From Candidatus Nomurabacteria bacterium (GTDB lineage Bacteria; Patescibacteriota; Minisyncoccia; Phycocordibacterales; UBA9973), in contig CAWJHU010000002.1 of the NCBI GenBank assembly GCA_963842815.1, forward strand, positions 1 to 42,512: DNA of 42,512 bases. Reading direction: 5' to 3'. Both the position numbers and the translations under genes were made by a program. Positions 2,741 through 37,490 of this stretch are shown here, piece after piece (position 1 is the first letter of the stretch; every line of letters begins with the position of its first letter). The notes below the pieces were generated by a model, which was given only the letters and a program-made list of their open reading frames with translations, ran no database searches and was not told the origin of the DNA.

Positions 2741-4057
2741 ATGCAAGATTTAGATATTATAAAAATTATTAAGCAAACACTTTTGAATAAAAAATTTATT
2801 TATGTATTTTCAGTCAGCCTAATTTCCCTGGTTATTGTCTCAGCCATTGGCCTGGGGTTCATCTGGTATTTCCGCGCAAATGTTTTTGATTATTTTGCCA
2901 AAGAATATTTGCAGGAGGTGCAGAATCCAAAAAGCAACCTGGGGAATATTGGAAAATCAACGGCTGAACAGATTATAGAAAAACAATCCATTTTTTCTCA
3001 GGATTCTTTCGTTATTGATGCCGTTAAGAAAACCAATCCGTCCGTGGTCTCCATCATCATCAGCAAAAATGTTCCCAAATATGAAGAATACATTGACCCC
3101 AACCAGCAGCAAAATCCATTTGGCGATTTATTCCCCGGTTTTTCTTTTAATATTCCGCAATATCGTCAAAATGGCACCCAAAAACAAGATATTGGCGGCG
3201 GTTCCGGATTTTTTGTATCAAGCGATGGATTAATTGTTACCAATAAGCACGTTGTTGACCAGACGGATGTTGAGTATACGGTTTTTACCAATGATGGAAA
3301 AAAGTATCCGGCAACAGTTGTTGCCCGCGACCCGGTTCTTGATATTGCTTTGATAAAAATTTCTGGCGCCAACTTTACTCCGCTTTCTTTGGGAAACTCT
3401 GATTCTCTACAGGTGGGGCAGAGTGTCATTGCCATTGGCAATGCTTTGGGGGAATTTAGAAATACGGTTTCCGTCGGCGTGGTTTCCGGCCTGGCTCGTT
3501 CCATTACCGCGGGGGATAGTCTTTCCGGCAGTACTGAAACTCTGGACCACGTCATTCAAACGGACGCAGCCATCAATCCCGGGAATTCCGGTGGTCCGTT
3601 GCTTGACCTATCCGGAAATGTAATTGGCGTCAATGTTGCCATTGCAGAAGGCTCCCAAAATGTCGGTTTTGCCCTCCCGATAAATAGCGTTAAAAGCGCG
3701 ATTGAATCGGTCAAAGCTACCGGTAAAATAATAAGGCCGTATTTGGGTATCAGATATGTTGCCATAAATGCGGAAATGAAAGACGCAAATAATTTATCGG
3801 TGGATTATGGCGTATTGGTTAAGGCAGGACAAAATGCAAACGAACTGGCTGTTATTCCGGGTTCTCCTGCCGACAAAGCGGGGATAGTGGAGAATGATAT
3901 TATTTTGGAAGTTGATGGCACAAAGCTGGATGATAAAACTTCCTTGGCTTCTCTCATCAGGGAGAAAAATATTGGCGATGTGATTACCCTAAAAATTCTG
4001 CACAAAGGAACAGAAAAAACCATTCAGGTAACTCTGGAAGCAGCTCCAAATAATTAA
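2741..4057 (+). CDS. htrA: HtrA/DegP-family serine protease with PDZ domain, membrane anchored
   Basis: GGGSGF, TNKHVV (His), DIAL (Asp), TDAAINPGNSGGPL (Ser), C-terminal PDZ. Confidence 0.95.
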   Translation: MQDLDIIKIIKQTLLNKKFIYVFSVSLISLVIVSAIGLGFIWYFRANVFDYFAKEYLQEVQNPKSNLGNIGKSTAEQIIEKQSIFSQDSFVIDAVKKTNPSVVSIIISKNVPKYEEYIDPNQQQNPFGDLFPGFSFNIPQYRQNGTQKQDIGGGSGFFVSSDGLIVTNKHVVDQTDVEYTVFTNDGKKYPATVVARDPVLDIALIKISGANFTPLSLGNSDSLQVGQSVIAIGNALGEFRNTVSVGVVSGLARSITAGDSLSGSTETLDHVIQTDAAINPGNSGGPLLDLSGNVIGVNVAIAEGSQNVGFALPINSVKSAIESVKATGKIIRPYLGIRYVAINAEMKDANNLSVDYGVLVKAGQNANELAVIPGSPADKAGIVENDIILEVDGTKLDDKTSLASLIREKNIGDVITLKILHKGTEKTIQVTLEAAPNN

Positions 4058-4058
4058 T

Positions 4059-5207
4059 TTATTTTACATCCCTGAGTCGCAGAATTATGAAAAATCCAAG
4101 AAGCAAAACTGCACCCAAAACAAAGAAAAGATATTTAAAAGAAGGAGCCAGGAGGAGAATAGGAAAAGCGACGAGGGGAGCAATGATATAAGAAAAAGAA
4201 GGAGCATTTCGGAAAAAACTGATTTCATCGGCATTTTTTTCGGTTATAGTTTTGAAAAAATAACTTTCGTTCATAACTTCTATGATGGCCGCGCCCACGC
4301 GGGTGGCGAAAAGTATCAAAGCCCACAGCCAAAGTATTGATTCCGTAATAAAAGGGATTGCCAGAACAGACAAAATGGTAATAATAAAGCCCCCAAGGAG
4401 CATTTTTTTCTCCCCAATTTTATCCGAAAGCTTGCCCAGAGGAAAATCCACCAAAACGAACGGAATAAGCATTATGGAAAAAATAATGCCGATTCTGTCC
4501 CAGCCGAAATTCATATATTCGTGCAGATATATGGGGGTATAAATTATCATCCAGGCGTAAAAAAATTGCAGAATTAAATTGCTGAGATATATTTTTGAAA
4601 TATTTTTATTTTGAATGAAAGCCCTGATTGTTTTTGTGATGGGAACTTTTTTATATTCCGGGTCTTTGAAATCGCGCAGAAAAAAAATAAAAATAAAAGC
4701 CACCAGAATCATAAACCCGGCGCTGAAAAAATAAATGCCCGAAAAAGAACTTTTTTCTATAATTGACCCGGAGATAAGCTGAGCCACTATCCAGGCCGAA
4801 TTAATTATCATCAAATAAGTTCCCCGAAGCAAGCCGATTTCGGAATTTTTTGAAAAATCTTCCACAAAAATGTCCAATGAGGCAATGATAAAATAAATTG
4901 ACAAGAAATAAAGAATAAAAGCTGGAATCACAACAAAAACACTGCCTCCCAATCCAAGCAAAAGAAGCGAAAAAAATATCAGCAGGCAAGATAGGAAAAT
5001 TACCAGACGATTACCCAAACGAGTCAAAATTTTGGGCATTTTTAATAAACCTATGATAGTTAAAATTGAAGCAATTACGTAAATAATGCCTACATAGTTT
5101 TTACCGACATAAATTTCCAAAAAACTGGAATTTATGTAAGAAGTGATGGCAAATGGGATGGAAAACAAAAAACCCGCCAGGTATATTATTTTTCTATTGT
5201 GTTTCAT
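4059..5207 (-). CDS. MFS transporter
   Basis: About 12 hydrophobic segments; GKLSDKIGEKK motif A. Confidence 0.85.
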   Translation of the reverse strand: MKHNRKIIYLAGFLFSIPFAITSYINSSFLEIYVGKNYVGIIYVIASILTIIGLLKMPKILTRLGNRLVIFLSCLLIFFSLLLLGLGGSVFVVIPAFILYFLSIYFIIASLDIFVEDFSKNSEIGLLRGTYLMIINSAWIVAQLISGSIIEKSSFSGIYFFSAGFMILVAFIFIFFLRDFKDPEYKKVPITKTIRAFIQNKNISKIYLSNLILQFFYAWMIIYTPIYLHEYMNFGWDRIGIIFSIMLIPFVLVDFPLGKLSDKIGEKKMLLGGFIITILSVLAIPFITESILWLWALILFATRVGAAIIEVMNESYFFKTITEKNADEISFFRNAPSFSYIIAPLVAFPILLLAPSFKYLFFVLGAVLLLGFFIILRLRDVK

Positions 5208-7135
5208 ATACTTAATACCACCGGAATAACCAGAGGCCTTTTGGCCGTTTTTTGATACAGAAATTTTGAAACCGTTTCGCCCAAATTAGCCTTGATGTAA
5301 TCAAGGTCAACCAAATTATTTTTTATGGCAACATCTTCCACTCCTTTTTTGATGATAATTCGCACTTGGCGCAGAAGTTCCTGATTTTCTTTTAAATAGA
5401 CAAATCCTCGCGATATTAAATCCGGAGATTTTTTTAATTTTCCGGTTTTTTGGTCTACCAAAGCAATAATAACAAACATTCCGTCCTGGGCCAGCATTTG
5501 ACGGTCCCTGATAACGACATCCTGCACGTCGGAAATAGCCAATCCATCCACCATCATTAATCCGGACGGAGCTTTTTCTTTGCGCACCGTCATTTTTTCT
5601 CCATTGGCCGATATCTCAATAATTGAACCGTTGTCCGGAACCACGATATTTTCTTCGGGCATTCCCATTTCCATGGCCAGCTCCTTATGCAGCTCCAGAT
5701 GATAATGATGTCCGTGGATAGGAATGAAAAACTTCGGGTGCATTTTTTTATGAAGCCATCTTATGTCTTCTTTATTGCCATGGCCGGTGGCGTGGACGAA
5801 ATCTTCTCCGGCGGTGCGATAGCTGATGATGCGTACGCCCTGTCTGGATAAATTATCTTTTATTCTTTGCACCGCCCTTTCATTTCCCGGAACAATGGAG
5901 GCCGAAAGAATAATGGTATCTCCTTTGCTCAACGAAAATTTCGTATGCGATTTATTGGATGCTCGGGAAAGCGCCGCGAATTCTTCTCCCTGGGAGCCGG
6001 TCATCAATATCACCACTTTATTGGGCGGATAATTATTTACTTCCTCTATGGGGATAATAGTGCCTTTTTTGGGCTTGAAATATCCAGCTTCAATGGCCAC
6101 GTCTACGTTGGTTTTCATTGAACGTCCGTCAATGGCGATTTTTTTGCCGAGAGATTCGGCTACTTTTACCACGTGTACCAAACGGGTAATATGGGAAGCA
6201 AAGGCGGCAATAATTATTCTGCCATTTATTTTTTTTATCAGATTTTCTAGTCCCTGATGCACTTTTATTTCGGGTAGAGAAAATCCTTCATTTTCAATAT
6301 TGGTGGAATCGGTCATCAGCAGAAGTATTTTTGCCTTGTCAAAAGTGGAATATTCTTTTTCTTCTTCGGGGGTTACGATTCCGTCCACCTGGTCTAATTT
6401 ATAATCTCCCGGAGTGACAATCCAGCCATTTTTTGTTTCAATAATAATTCCCATTGAATCGGGGATTGTGTGAGTGACGCCAAAAAATCGAACTTTTATT
6501 TTTCCGCAGGTTACTGTTCCATCTTTTTCCACCACTTCCGCCTTCATGGGAGGCAAATGGGGGAATTCCGCCTGGCGTTTCTTCATCAGAAGCACCGAAA
6601 GATTTCTGGAGTATACCGTCGGATTGCCGATGCGCGAGAGAACAATGGGCACGCCTCCAATATGGTCCAAGTGTCCGTGGGTTATAAATAAACCGCGTAT
6701 TTTGTCTTTATGCTCTTCAAGATAAGTGGTATTTGGAATAACATAATCCACTCCGGGCGTTTCTTCATTGGAAAAATGCATACCTGCGTCAATGATTATG
6801 ATGTCATCGCCGATTTCTATGGCGGTCATATTCTTTCCGATTTCTTCCACTCCGCCGAGAGTAATAATGCGAACCACTCCTTCGGCGGGAGGAGGAATTT
6901 TAGTTTCATTTGTATTTTTATATCCGCTTCTGGTTCCGAATGAACGACCGCCGCCCCGGGACTGTTTATAATTTCTTTTGGAGTATTGATAGGTGGAATT
7001 TTTTGCAGGTTTTTTGGATGTTGGGCGTCTGGAATCTTGGCGTCCGGCGTCCGGTTGGGCAGATTTTTTTTCTCCGCTCGTCGGATGAGCGGGTTCCATC
7101 ATAACAGAGCTAAAAGACAATCTAGTTTTTCTCAT
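5204..7135 (-). CDS. rnj: Ribonuclease J
   Basis: LGGVEEIGKNMT, THGHLDHIGG, HTIPDS, TGSQGE, HATGHG, PIHG. Confidence 0.96.
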   Translation of the reverse strand: MRKTRLSFSSVMMEPAHPTSGEKKSAQPDAGRQDSRRPTSKKPAKNSTYQYSKRNYKQSRGGGRSFGTRSGYKNTNETKIPPPAEGVVRIITLGGVEEIGKNMTAIEIGDDIIIIDAGMHFSNEETPGVDYVIPNTTYLEEHKDKIRGLFITHGHLDHIGGVPIVLSRIGNPTVYSRNLSVLLMKKRQAEFPHLPPMKAEVVEKDGTVTCGKIKVRFFGVTHTIPDSMGIIIETKNGWIVTPGDYKLDQVDGIVTPEEEKEYSTFDKAKILLLMTDSTNIENEGFSLPEIKVHQGLENLIKKINGRIIIAAFASHITRLVHVVKVAESLGKKIAIDGRSMKTNVDVAIEAGYFKPKKGTIIPIEEVNNYPPNKVVILMTGSQGEEFAALSRASNKSHTKFSLSKGDTIILSASIVPGNERAVQRIKDNLSRQGVRIISYRTAGEDFVHATGHGNKEDIRWLHKKMHPKFFIPIHGHHYHLELHKELAMEMGMPEENIVVPDNGSIIEISANGEKMTVRKEKAPSGLMMVDGLAISDVQDVVIRDRQMLAQDGMFVIIALVDQKTGKLKKSPDLISRGFVYLKENQELLRQVRIIIKKGVEDVAIKNNLVDLDYIKANLGETVSKFLYQKTAKRPLVIPVVLSI

Positions 7136-10148: not shown

Positions 10149-11700
<1,552 letters not shown>

Positions 11701-11870
11701 TTTGAAAATCGTTATAAAGTGCTTTGCATTTTATAGCTTATTGAGTCGGTATTGTGTAGCTCAATTGACTACACAATAGTTTTTATTCAAACTTAAAATG
11801 AGTAAGACTATATGGAAAGACATATAAAATAAAAAAGTTTATATAGAACGAAACAAAACATAGAACAGCA

Positions 11871-11904
11871 AAAAAATACCTCGCGCAAGCGGGGTATTTT
11901 TTTT
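11871..11904 (+). terminator. Intrinsic terminator ending the 16S transcript
   Basis: AAAAAATACCTCGC-GCAA-GCGGGGTATTTTTTTT. Confidence 0.85.
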
Positions 11905-11907
11905 ATT

Positions 11908-12378
11908 CACCTCACCCCGACCCCTCTCCGGAGTACCAGAGAGGGGAGAAATTAGAAGTTCATTTTTTAGACAATTCCTTAATTTTTGTTCTAATTTTAT
12001 TTAAGACGGAATTCAAATTATTTTCTATTTCAGAATTCCAAAATCTTAATTCATAAATATATTTAGATTCCAAATATATTGTCCTTTCTGTGTCGTATTC
12101 TCTGTTTTCTTTTAGATTATGGATAGAACCATCAAGCTCTATGGAAAGTTTTATTTTGGGTACATAAAAATCAAGAATATACATATCAATTGGATATTGT
12201 CTTCTAAATTTTATACCTATGTTGCTATTTCTTAACTCCTGCCAGAGTATTTTTTCTGCTTTTGTTTCTTCTTTTCTCAAATATCTAGCTTTAATTATTG
12301 TTTTAAATTTAGTCACTAAATAATTATATAATAAAATTCCCCTCGCCAGTAATCTGGAGAGGGGGTAGGGGTGAGGTG
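11908..12378. mobile_element. Putative DUF559 cassette bounded by inverted ~41-bp hairpin repeats
   Basis: Left CACCTCACCCCGACCCCTCTCCGGAGTACCAGAGAGGGGA (11908-11947). Right end (12337-12378) reverse-complements to CACCTCACCCCTACCCCCTCTCCAGATTACTGGCGAGGGGAA. Confidence 0.65.
11960..12316 (-). CDS. DUF559 (Vsr-like PD-(D/E)XK) endonuclease domain protein
   Basis: LRKEETKAEKILWQELR...KFRRQYPI..YILDFY...IELDGSIH...D.ERT..L...LRFWN; GTG start. Confidence 0.9.
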   Translation of the reverse strand: MTKFKTIIKARYLRKEETKAEKILWQELRNSNIGIKFRRQYPIDMYILDFYVPKIKLSIELDGSIHNLKENREYDTERTIYLESKYIYELRFWNSEIENNLNSVLNKIRTKIKELSKK

Positions 12379-12393
12379 TGTTATAATAATCAA

Positions 12394-13329
12394 ATGCCAG
12401 AAAAGACTAAAATCAAAGTCGGAATATTGCGGGGTGGGACAGGAAAACATTATGAATCTTCTTTGAAAAGAGGCGGGGAAATTATTTCGCATATTTTGGA
12501 AAATTTGTCTCTTAAATATAAAACAGTTGATATTTTAATTGATAAAAATGGTGTTTGGCATTTAAACGGCATTCCCATAAATTCCTCGGACCTGAATCGT
12601 AAAGTTGATGTAATTTGGAATACTTCAAAACACTCAAGCACAGCTTCTGTTTTGGATAATTTATCTATCCCAAATATAGGGAATGGGTCTTTTTTCGGAG
12701 CTTTGGAAAATAGCAGCGATATGCTAAGAAAACATATGAAAAGTATCGGAGTGCAAATGCCCCAATCCATAATCTTGCCTCTATATCAAAAAGATTTTGA
12801 TGGGCCCAGAGAAAAATATGCCATAAAAAAGGCCAAAGAAGTTTTTGAAAAATTTTCTTCGCCATGGATTGTGAAATCTTTTTCCGATGATTCCAATATG
12901 GGAATACATCTGGCAAAAACATTCGGAGAATTGGCGGAGGCCATAGAAGACGGAGTGGCGCATAAAAAAAGTATTCTAGTGGAAGAATTTATTCCGGGAA
13001 AGGTTGCCTCAATGCATTCGGTGCCGGCATTCCGCGGACAAGACATTTATGTTTTTCCACTTGGAAATACTTTTGGAAATTTTACTCCCGGTGAAAAAGA
13101 AAAATTGATTTCTCTGGTAAAAAATTTACACAACCACATTGGCGCAAAACATTATCTGAAATCAGATTTTATTTTAAATGGGAAAGGCAAAATTTACCTT
13201 TTGGATATTGATGGAATACCGGACCTAAGACCGGATTCGCATTTTTCCCAGGTTTGCGAATCAGTTGGCGCCAAAACGCACCATATAATAGAGCATATTT
13301 TGGAAAAAGCTTTAGAAAAAACGACATAA
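12394..13329 (+). CDS. D-alanine--D-alanine ligase-like ATP-grasp protein with degenerate motifs
   Basis: KVGILRGG N-terminus, PWIVKS, SILVEEFIPG, SDFIL..KIYLLDID.IP. ATG at 12394 preferred over the ORF-track start. Confidence 0.75.
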   Translation: MPEKTKIKVGILRGGTGKHYESSLKRGGEIISHILENLSLKYKTVDILIDKNGVWHLNGIPINSSDLNRKVDVIWNTSKHSSTASVLDNLSIPNIGNGSFFGALENSSDMLRKHMKSIGVQMPQSIILPLYQKDFDGPREKYAIKKAKEVFEKFSSPWIVKSFSDDSNMGIHLAKTFGELAEAIEDGVAHKKSILVEEFIPGKVASMHSVPAFRGQDIYVFPLGNTFGNFTPGEKEKLISLVKNLHNHIGAKHYLKSDFILNGKGKIYLLDIDGIPDLRPDSHFSQVCESVGAKTHHIIEHILEKALEKTT

Positions 13330-13331
13330 AC

Positions 13332-13402
13332 CGGGCCGTAGTATACCGGTCGTACGCATCCTTCGGGAGGATGTAGACTGGGTTCGATTCCCAGCGGCCC
13401 GA
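13332..13402 (+). tRNA. tRNA-Pro (CGG), CCA not encoded
   Basis: CGGGCCG/CGGCCCG acceptor stem; anticodon arm CATCC-TTCGGGA-GGATG; TTCGATT T-loop. Confidence 0.93.
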
Positions 13403-13426
13403 CAATTTGATATAATAAACTCACGA

Positions 13427-37076: not shown

Positions 37077-37096
37077 TTATCAATATAAATGTCAAG

Positions 37097-37180
37097 TGCT
37101 GGGAGGGAGACTTGAACTCCCATGAGATTTCTCTCGCTTGCTCCTAAGGCAAGTGCGTCTGCCAATTTCGCCATCCCAGC
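37097..37180 (-). tRNA. tRNA-Leu (TAG)
   Basis: GCTGGGA acceptor; CTTGC-CTTAGGA-GCAAG; long variable arm. Confidence 0.95.
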
Positions 37181-37184
37181 AATG

Positions 37185-37257
37185 TCCGCCCAGAGGGGAT
37201 CGAACCCCCGACCTTATCCTTAAGAGGGATCTGCTCTACCAGCTGAGCTATGGGCGG
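37185..37257 (-). tRNA. tRNA-Lys (CTT)
   Basis: CCGCCCA/TGGGCGG acceptor; anticodon loop CTCTTAA. Confidence 0.93.
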
Positions 37258-37296
37258 ATACAAAAAATTTTTACAAAACATTTAGTTCTTTTAAGG

Positions 37297-37378
37297 TGCC
37301 CGAGGTGGGAATCGAACCCACATCCCTTGCGAGACACGATTTTAAGTCGTGCGCGTATACCAATTCCGCCACTCGGGC
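37297..37378 (-). tRNA. tRNA-Leu (TAA)
   Basis: GCCCGAG acceptor; CACGA-CTTAAAA-TCGTG. Confidence 0.95.
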
Positions 37379-37418
37379 AATGGACTAAATATATATTTTT
37401 ATTTTCAAATTACAATTG

Positions 37419-37490
37419 AGGCCTGGGGCGGAATTGAACCGCCGTATATTCCTTTTGCAGAGGAATGCCTTACCACTTGGCTACCAGGCC
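37419..37490 (-). tRNA. tRNA-Cys (GCA)
   Basis: GGCCTGG acceptor; TTCCT-CTGCAAA-AGGAA. Confidence 0.95.

Follow-up and report, generated by a model that had tools for sequence, protein, structure and literature searches.

A stretch of 42,512 nucleotides from a Candidatus Nomurabacteria bacterium (contig CAWJHU010000002.1, assembly GCA_963842815.1), referred to as the window, carries a 471-bp element between its 16S rRNA gene and ddl. The element consists of a small nuclease gene of the DUF559 family that is bracketed by two inverted repeats of the BoxC/PIT/TM family. BoxC has been known in E. coli as an orphan repeat family since the 1990s. Herein, we propose, with a probability of about 0.6, that positions 11908-12378 are the autonomous copy of a small selfish element, in which BoxC/PIT/TM units form the ends and DUF559 is the nuclease cognate to BoxC. 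This reading is carried by what was directly established: the anatomy of the element, its presence or absence at one site in relatives, its horizontal transfer, the purifying selection on its gene, the association of DUF559 with the repeats across phyla, and the occurrence of gene-less derivatives. The repeats themselves are already known; the link between DUF559 and BoxC is new. Within the searchable library, no paper joins DUF559 or YcjD to these repeats, and no follow-up of the triplex-repeat work found in it names a nuclease.

Architecture of the element

The element starts and ends with perfect 11-bp terminal inverted repeats, CACCTCACCCC, which are called tails. Each repeat unit is composed of the tail, a 2-3-nt spacer, and a 26-nt imperfect hairpin, and both hairpins are located just inside the termini. 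The hairpin on the 5' side of the gene is the upstream type (U), and the hairpin on the 3' side is the downstream type (D). The tail was found at these two places only in the 42.5 kb, with 0.33 occurrences expected. Both units are intergenic, and extra solo copies are present in related loci of the Candidate Phyla Radiation (CPR). Folding of both hairpins was better than that of shuffled sequences, with z values from -2.6 to -4.8. The GC content is 24.9% for the DUF559 gene, 63-67% for the repeats, and 38.5% for the window. These data confirm, with exact coordinates (Table 1), the claim of an earlier note made from the sequence alone, in which a very AT-rich DUF559 gene was described between inverted GC-rich repeats, each with a tail and an internal hairpin. 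The same note described the inner pairs of the two hairpins as covarying. This holds for one compensatory pair (G-C vs A-T), and the two other changes are single mismatches. The mismatches represent a conserved difference between the U and D types that recurs in relatives, and not random drift between the copies.

The 16S rRNA gene (10150-11702) is followed by a trailer of about 200 nt and then by an A-run, a hairpin, and a T-run, which places the element behind the rRNA terminator as had been noted. The terminator-like hairpin is conserved in the related locus L213, and equivalents are found in L215 and L211. On the other side, the right tail adjoins the extended -10 box TG-T-TATAAT (12379-12387), located 6 nt ahead of the ATG of ddl (12394); this abutment had also been read correctly. 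The pattern TGnTATAAT-N6-ATG is shared by L003 and by L215, where the site is empty. The GTG called at 12376 by the open reading frame (ORF) finder falls within the repeat.

The repeats are BoxC/PIT/TM units

Judged by sequence, the repeats are the known BoxC/PIT/TM (TM-ECO) intrastrand-triplex repeats and not a new motif, an identity that the earlier note did not recognise. BoxC of E. coli was rediscovered as the PIT (potential intrastrand triplex) element and was later named TM-ECO (Holder et al. 2015, PMC4666352); the family was treated earlier by Bachellier et al. 1999 and by Hoyne and Maher 2000 and 2002. The family is found in more than 260 genomes, with 23 copies in E. coli K-12, and the E. 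coli unit is a hairpin CCCTC(T/G)CC..GGAGAGGG followed by GGGTTA/CCG-GGGTGAGGG (PMC4666352). The window units have the same hairpin arms, CCCTCTCC / GGAGAGGG, the same 2-3-nt spacer, and the same third block, GGGGTGAGG, which is the mirror image of the purine arm in symmetry. Similarly, they are intergenic, include the 'mm' mismatch variant, and occur as two types that pair in inverted orientation. The right unit differs from the E. coli TMECO 'A mm' unit only in the loop and the spacer (PMC4666352 Table 1). In the published descriptions no gene is associated with the units, and neither mobility genes near TM repeats nor a function were reported (PMC4666352); in contrast, the window units lie on both sides of a nuclease gene, with which they move. 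A search of Rfam with the repeats gave no family match at gathering or permissive thresholds, only sub-threshold noise.

The tail on the minus strand is GGGGTGAGGTG. When it is laid antiparallel on the purine arm GGAGAGGGG, only G.G:C, A.A:T, and T.A:T triads are formed, and this triad rule holds at 9/9 positions in both window units. On the G-rich strand, hairpin and tail together read as the sequence of an intrastrand purine-motif triplex. E. coli TMECO forms such a triplex in vitro, and in vivo dimethyl sulfate footprinting was unsupportive (PMC4666352). Among 329 units, 87% of positions followed the triad rule in register, compared with 41-60% when shifted and 48% antiparallel, a measure that is biased by the pattern search that found the units. 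The mutual information between tail and arm in these units was strongest on the diagonal, but weak. Given the tail and the 5' arm, the 3' arm paired at 7 or more of 8 positions in 247/299 units vs 25/299 shuffled ones. Of 270 units, 38 had a 'TC' mismatch at stem position 6 and 47 had a 'CA' mismatch at stem position 8. In most CPR loci, the U type is again located upstream of DUF559, and the D type is found also in L012, L014, L016, L019, L020, and L024. The conserved T.G mismatch of the D hairpin lies in CTGG/CCGG on the sense strand and resembles a Vsr substrate, which is suggestive as an observation only.

Insertion at a fixed site and horizontal spread

In the close relatives L001-L012, in which the protein is 86-92% identical, the element is located at the same place next to ddl. 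The same synteny of His_Phos, 16S, and ddl is found in L215/L216, L213, and L211 with neither DUF559 nor the motif, so that the empty sites after 16S that the earlier note had proposed to look for do exist in relatives. When 11908-12378 is removed, the window is colinear with L215, with 81% identity over 196 nt, and the empty-site junction falls at TTTTTTTTATT^TGTTATAAT. The junction position in this alignment indicates that the insertion is bounded exactly by the 11-bp terminal repeats. Both the 16S terminator and the ddl promoter are undamaged by the insertion.

Synonymous divergence (dS) was compared between genes in pairs of the window, L003, and L001. For DUF559, dS was 0.35-0.46 and third-position identity at conserved residues was 0.81-0.86. 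For ddl and SecA in the same genome pairs, dS reached 1.1-1.6 and 1.3-2.3, with third-position identities of 0.53-0.63 and 0.54-0.61, respectively. The element is much younger than its neighbouring genes. The lower dS of DUF559 indicates that it spread horizontally into the same site. A block with 86-94% identity to L003/L001 has its beginning at the promoter and start of ddl, no more than about 20 nt from the right terminal repeat; on the ddl side, the step in identity coincides with the border of the element. The identity of ddl to that of the window is 71-73% in DUF559-less relatives, but 66% in L003 and 56% in L001, which bear DUF559; the element is missing, then, from relatives that are as close as its bearers or closer.

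Turnover at the site is visible in L001. A decayed U unit together with the DUF559 promoter region (CACAGCTCAGC-ATTCTCCAGATTAC...) is located at 3880-3940, between the ddl promoter and the intact element, as would be expected if the site had been re-invaded or the element replaced in tandem. In other CPR lineages, such as L014 and its relatives, copies of the element occupy the same promoter-proximal site immediately upstream of the efp promoter, and both orientations occur. The empty sites, the dS gap, the identity step at the border, the distribution among relatives, the decayed remnant, and the efp copies together indicate that the element spread horizontally into a fixed site and was subject to turnover. 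The locus is thus variable among relatives, a point on which the earlier note had made its proposal depend. Two other routes were considered and rejected. Recent intragenomic bursts are ruled out by the 46-76% identity of DUF559 paralogues in the same genome, and so is a phage-borne element by the finding of only 8 weak DUF559 matches in 2.9 million viral contigs.

Association of DUF559 with the repeats across phyla

The flanks of DUF559 genes were analyzed in 80 loci, one genome per species, covering 448 kb and at least six phyla (CPR, Bacteroidota, Chloroflexota, Verrucomicrobiota, Planctomycetota, Proteobacteria, and others). Tail plus hairpin, searched for with a strict fuzzy pattern, matched 159 times in the 448 kb vs 3 times in shuffled DNA. 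The motif was located within 150 nt of the gene, in the orientation of the window, in 48/80 loci, and on both sides in 20 of them. With a relaxed pattern, 59/78 loci were positive, E. coli ycjD being included among the loci with the motif, which bears out the expectation of the earlier note for DUF559 genes elsewhere. In a motif-blind analysis, 51/78 loci had an inverted repeat at the flanks of the gene that exceeded the 99th percentile of shuffled sequences, and several motif-'negative' loci have lineage variants of the same design. The motif brackets about 60-75% of DUF559 genes in CPR, Bacteroidota, Chloroflexota, Verrucomicrobiota, and Proteobacteria, and the association is far beyond chance.

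The opposite search, starting from the motif, was performed by a half-motif scan of metagenome contigs. The 120 loci obtained (738 kb) contain 149 full motifs and 4 DUF559 genes. All 4 genes adjoin motif copies, and 3 of them are bracketed on both sides. The repeats are therefore mostly solo, as the earlier note had suggested counting, and DUF559 is nearly always found with them, which is the relation of REPs to RAYTs. DUF559 is the only gene family that was found repeatedly bracketed by motif pairs. Other small gene families were considered as motif cargo and rejected: the ORFs between motif pairs are ordinary host genes (a deaminase, a P-loop kinase-like protein, a NUDIX protein, an ABC ATPase) or have no Pfam hit. 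Similar flanks may also occur at four-helix-bundle/23S-IVS and GxxExxY genes.

The family comprises 34,662 clusters at 50% identity. Terminal peptide tails encoded by BoxC (PSP..GEG and the like) were found in 41/150 diverse family representatives, compared with 4/150 shuffled sequences and 1/120 ddl controls. Divergence of the motif variants follows that of the protein (Mantel r 0.37, 0/999 permutations), a correlation that is confounded by host phylogeny. Tandem arrays were also observed in Pedobacter (L080 2383-3897 and L067 2065-3750). In L080, three DUF559 genes are arranged in a row with the same BoxC variant after each, at a spacing of about 561 nt.

Gene-less derivatives

Several loci contain copies of the ends in which the gene is reduced or missing. 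In L020, beside a full element, there is an internally deleted copy that retains its two ends and, of the gene region, the last 35 nt. L022 contains a U-8 nt-D doublet, and L115 and L125 contain doublets with a short AT-rich filler. A 72-bp mini-element was also identified, with the order tail, hairpin, TGGATGCGAAGCAGAC, and inverted tail, in which TGGATGCGAAGCAGAC is a conserved 16-nt spacer. In L001 and L003, but not in the window, it is located 3' of DUF559; in L029-L031, it takes the place of the upstream unit; and in L101, it is solo upstream of pth. In some cases, a TATAAT box with an outward reading direction comes directly after the mini-element.

The DUF559 protein

At E <= 0.01, the Pfam hits of the window protein are PF04480 (DUF559), MTES_1575, and PvuRts1I-like only. 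The only sequence match in the PDB is 3HRL, a structural-genomics entry (E 1e-22), and no significant PDB sequence match to I-Bth0305I was found. The AlphaFold (AF2) model has a pLDDT of 84. Foldseek with this model gave 3HRL at 1e-7, I-Bth0305I (PDB 3R3P) at 6.9e-4 (TM-scores 0.60/0.71, 23% identity), Vsr at 0.14, and TnsA at noise level. The protein is modelled as a Vsr/I-Bth0305I-like PD-(D/E)XK endonuclease. The residues D49, E60, H66, R78, R91, and N94 are invariant. The dN/dS ratio (nonsynonymous to synonymous divergence) is 0.10-0.19, and the gene is under purifying selection. In Caulobacter, the DUF559 protein VsrA causes an SOS response and DNA damage in vivo upon deletion of a cytosine methyltransferase (PMC12907096). 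This indicates that members of the family are active nucleases in vivo. PADLOC returned weak nuclease-domain hits only and no defence system, and NCBIfam returned only the YcjD equivalog, below its cutoff.

DUF559 and BoxC in E. coli

The sole DUF559 gene of E. coli K-12 is ycjD. TMECO #9 is located about 170 nt 3' of it, in the orientation of the D unit of the window. A degenerate hairpin lies over the ycjD stop codon, together with a duplicated fragment of the gene's 3' end. Among complete E. coli genomes, 3,378/5,426 (62%) have ycjD, single-copy at one locus, and the others (38%) have the eefRABCD efflux operon at the site. At least two independent ycjD/eefRABCD replacements were inferred previously (PMC12817139). 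BoxC #9 was considered as the breakpoint of this replacement and was set aside; the fabI-side breakpoint is 41 nt away, which is only suggestive.

Comparison with known mobile systems

By analogy, the element resembles a REPIN-RAYT system or a homing endonuclease gene, and it belongs to neither. The likeness to repetitive extragenic palindromes (REPs) and their REP-associated tyrosine transposases (RAYTs; Nunvar 2010; Bertels and Rainey 2011) lies in one small nuclease-type gene between inverted palindromic repeats, in the dispersal of BoxC also as gene-less singlets and doublets, and in a low copy number of long-lived genes. REPs have a conserved 5' GTAG tetranucleotide next to the hairpin, whereas the window units bear the CCTCACCCC tail. 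RAYTs are HUH/Y1 enzymes (IS200/IS605 TnpA-like), and DUF559 is PD-(D/E)XK (Vsr-like). REPs are lineage-specific, but BoxC is cross-phylum and includes a third block of the triplex type. Vertical inheritance is described for RAYTs, and the window element, in contrast, shows horizontal transfer. The REP/RAYT-like selfish unit of the earlier note is thus supported as an analogy, and membership in the RAYT family is not.

The Vsr-like EDxHD homing endonuclease I-Bth0305I is the best characterised structural match of DUF559. Further likenesses to homing endonucleases are the presence or absence at one precise site, an element younger than its flanks, the occupation of the same site in diverged lineages, and a decayed remnant beside an intact copy, as expected of a homing cycle. 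The window element differs in lying in no intron or intein, in having inverted repeats of its own as ends, and in giving rise to gene-less repeats that are dispersed.

IS200/IS605 elements share subterminal imperfect hairpins that differ between the ends and the absence of a target duplication. Miniature inverted-repeat transposable elements share terminal inverted repeats and internally deleted non-autonomous derivatives. The window element differs from both IS200/IS605 and DDE-type transposons with terminal inverted repeats in that it has no Y1 or DDE transposase, only a 118-aa nuclease in 471 bp. The PD-(D/E)XK variant fold and the D...E.D..H core of DUF559 are those of Vsr; the window gene differs in being mobile and repeat-bracketed, and PF03852 is not among its Pfam hits. 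No methyltransferase is annotated adjacent to DUF559, whose neighbours are the 16S gene and ddl; this negative covers the immediate neighbours only.

Alternative explanations

DUF559 could be a passenger or secondary invader of unstable hot spots that are marked by BoxC. In that case, BoxC would be recombinogenic or moved by another enzyme, and the job of the nuclease would be elsewhere. Small genes acquired horizontally, DUF559 among them, would then land in such intergenic spots or be captured between the BoxC units. The excess of solo motifs next to ordinary genes and the occurrence of both tail orientations fit this explanation, as do the other small ORFs hosted by the 16S-ddl site in L213 and L211. 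Holder et al. tied TM sites to local rearrangement with no nuclease involved (PMC4666352). The extra short matches to a BoxC-containing query in ycjD-less E. coli, described below, point the same way. We consider it unlikely. The association is specific: DUF559 alone was found repeatedly bracketed, other bracketed ORFs are unrelated host genes, and the motif is found with a conserved U/D layout at 60-75% of DUF559 genes across phyla. In the window, the repeats arrived with the gene at a site where relatives have no BoxC. Furthermore, gene-less derivatives retain 3'-end fragments of DUF559, and protein and motif co-diverge.

DUF559 might instead be a solitary Vsr-like endonuclease of the host that acts in very-short-patch mismatch repair, with hairpins that are regulatory, terminators, or neutral. 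The fold, the strong purifying selection, the functional tie of Caulobacter VsrA to a cytosine methyltransferase (PMC12907096), and a D hairpin that would fall in the 3' untranslated region are in agreement with such a role. Presence or absence at one site and the discordant dS argue against a vertically inherited housekeeping gene, however, and the GC content of DUF559 is anomalous. The Vsr model PF03852 is absent from the Pfam hits of the protein at E <= 0.01. The U unit is upstream of the -10 box of the gene and so outside the mRNA. Neither promoter nor terminator activity was seen for PIT elements in E. coli (Hoyne and Maher 2002, cited in PMC4666352), and purine-motif triplexes do not form in RNA (PMC4666352). 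Conservation of a 35-40-nt motif from E. coli to CPR is unexpected for a local regulator. We regard this explanation as quite improbable. A chance resemblance or an assembly artefact, for which only the presence of just two motif copies in the window could be cited, is refuted by the recurrence of the same architecture in independent assemblies from many samples and phyla and by motif counts far beyond those of shuffles.

Several findings weigh against a selfish element with a cognate nuclease. No target-site duplication was seen at the element junctions, and a 118-aa nuclease alone cannot do strand transfer. Binding and cutting of BoxC by DUF559 are what we infer. DUF559 genes are far away from about 96% of the motif copies, and copies are found also between ordinary genes. 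Both 'tails-out' layouts (CPR, Bacteroidota) and 'tails-in' layouts (Verrucomicrobiota, some metagenome loci) occur, so that a single defined transposon end is not obvious. Same-genome DUF559 paralogues are old, and this, together with the single locus of ycjD, indicates that movement is rare, which does not fit a fast transposon. A constraint at the nucleotide level could in principle account for the low dS of DUF559. In L020, the array appears to be the product of unequal recombination and not of insertion. In E. coli, the ycjD-less genomes give extra short matches to a BoxC-containing query; these matches were not inspected, and BoxC-like copies apparently persist in such genomes.

Feature coordinates and neighbourhood

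The features of the element are listed in Table 1. Promoter and terminator features were assigned by direct reading and conservation. A simple -35/-10 scan called neither the extended -10 boxes nor the DUF559 -10 box, and a simple terminator scan did not call the 16S terminator hairpin.

Table 1 Coordinates of the element, its flanks, and related copies in other loci.
Feature	Position	Strand	Remark
Whole element, terminal inverted repeat to terminal inverted repeat	11908..12378		471 bp
Left unit	11908-11949	+	CACCTCACCCC-GA-CCCCTCTCCGGAGTACCAGAGAGGGG
Right unit	12338-12378	read on -	CACCTCACCCC-TA-CCCCCTCTCCAGATTACTGGCGAGGGG
Left terminal inverted repeat (tail) CACCTCACCCC	11908..11918	+	third-strand block of BoxC/TM unit
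Right terminal inverted repeat (tail) GGGGTGAGGTG	12368..12378	+	read from the sequence
Downstream-type (D) hairpin CCCCTCTCCGGAGTACCAGAGAGGGG	11921..11946	+	conserved C.A mismatch, T.G on DUF559 sense strand
Upstream-type (U) hairpin CCCCTCGCCAGTAATCTGGAGAGGGG	12339..12364	+	conserved G.A mismatch (T.C on other strand), as in E. coli 'mm' variant
DUF559 gene, 118 aa, GTG start	11960..12316	-	PF04480, E 5.2e-31
TATAAT -10 box of DUF559 gene, 6 nt before GTG	12323..12328	-	direct reading; inside element, downstream of U hairpin
Flank: terminator-like A-run/hairpin/T-run ending 16S trailer	11870..11903		15-nt arms, 93% complementary; left border of insertion site
Flank: extended -10 TG-T-TATAAT and ddl ATG	12379..12396	+	right border of insertion site, intact
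Mini-element	L003 4361-4435; L029 2919-2990; L030; L031; L101 147-227		
fabI-ycjD-sapF region with TMECO #9	NC_000913.3 1351039-1351828 (L217 1541-2340)		

The sequence 'ttatataattat(t)taGTG' is kept across L001-L010. The position of TATAAT 6 nt before the GTG suggests that the DUF559 mRNA is probably leaderless, with the U hairpin outside of it. Boxes of the -10 type are found 6-7 nt ahead of the start codons of DUF559 and ddl and, in relatives, of efp, and a Shine-Dalgarno sequence is missing, which suggests that the lineage commonly has leaderless mRNAs.

The neighbourhood of 16S and ddl is variable. In L213, an ORF of 113 aa without a Pfam hit lies between the terminator and ddl (1458-1799), L211 has a short Cys-rich ORF in the 16S-ddl spot (2730-2925), and L215 has LAGLIDADG-like and serine-recombinase genes just after ddl (4283-6552). 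The 16S gene of close relatives is interrupted and matches by BLAST in blocks (L003 5074-7566, L001 5118-6735, L215 1131-2781), with a LAGLIDADG ORF in the interrupted 16S of L003-L005. The 16S gene of the window is uninterrupted, and no 23S gene follows it. A tRNA-Pro (cgg) gene is located at 13332-13403, directly after ddl, and a tRNA cluster (Leu-tag, Lys-ctt, Leu-taa, Cys-gca) at 37096-37490 on the minus strand. A search of sequencing runs for the locus found no run with it; no more than 11% of the sampled words matched, and these probably stem from the 16S portion of the query.

Proposed mechanism and implications

In the proposed mechanism, the DUF559 protein would be the cognate nuclease of BoxC units. 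It would recognise BoxC as a duplex, an extruded hairpin, or a folded triplex, and nick or cut at the unit. Repair or replication by the host would then copy the nuclease-plus-ends unit, or the ends alone, into the broken site. The outcome would be a homing-like or REPIN/RAYT-like propagation. The nuclease with cognate repeats of the earlier note is supported by analogy, the action of the nuclease on the repeats being its conjectural part. Propagation driven by DUF559 would explain why BoxC is widespread, intergenic, near local rearrangement, and previously without a mobilising gene.

A broader proposal is that the BoxC/PIT/TM repeats are the non-autonomous progeny of a so far unrecognised class of mobile elements of prokaryotes, composed of one DUF559 nuclease of about 115 aa and triplex- or hairpin-forming DNA ends. 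This is put forward tentatively, as a possibility with slightly less than even odds. If the nuclease is cognate to the repeats, the element would be a selfish system of the REPIN/RAYT-like or homing-like kind, with another enzyme fold as its basis and with non-B-DNA ends, and at 471 bp it would be among the smallest autonomous elements known. The same idea accounts for the frequent mis-annotated 'PSP...GEG' extensions of DUF559 ORFs. BoxC is conserved from E. coli to CPR and is linked to local genome instability. If the reading is true, DUF559, and with it YcjD of E. coli, would gain its first function, and two long-standing orphans, the BoxC repeats and DUF559, would explain each other. There is a substantial chance that the element defines a new class and gives both orphans a function.

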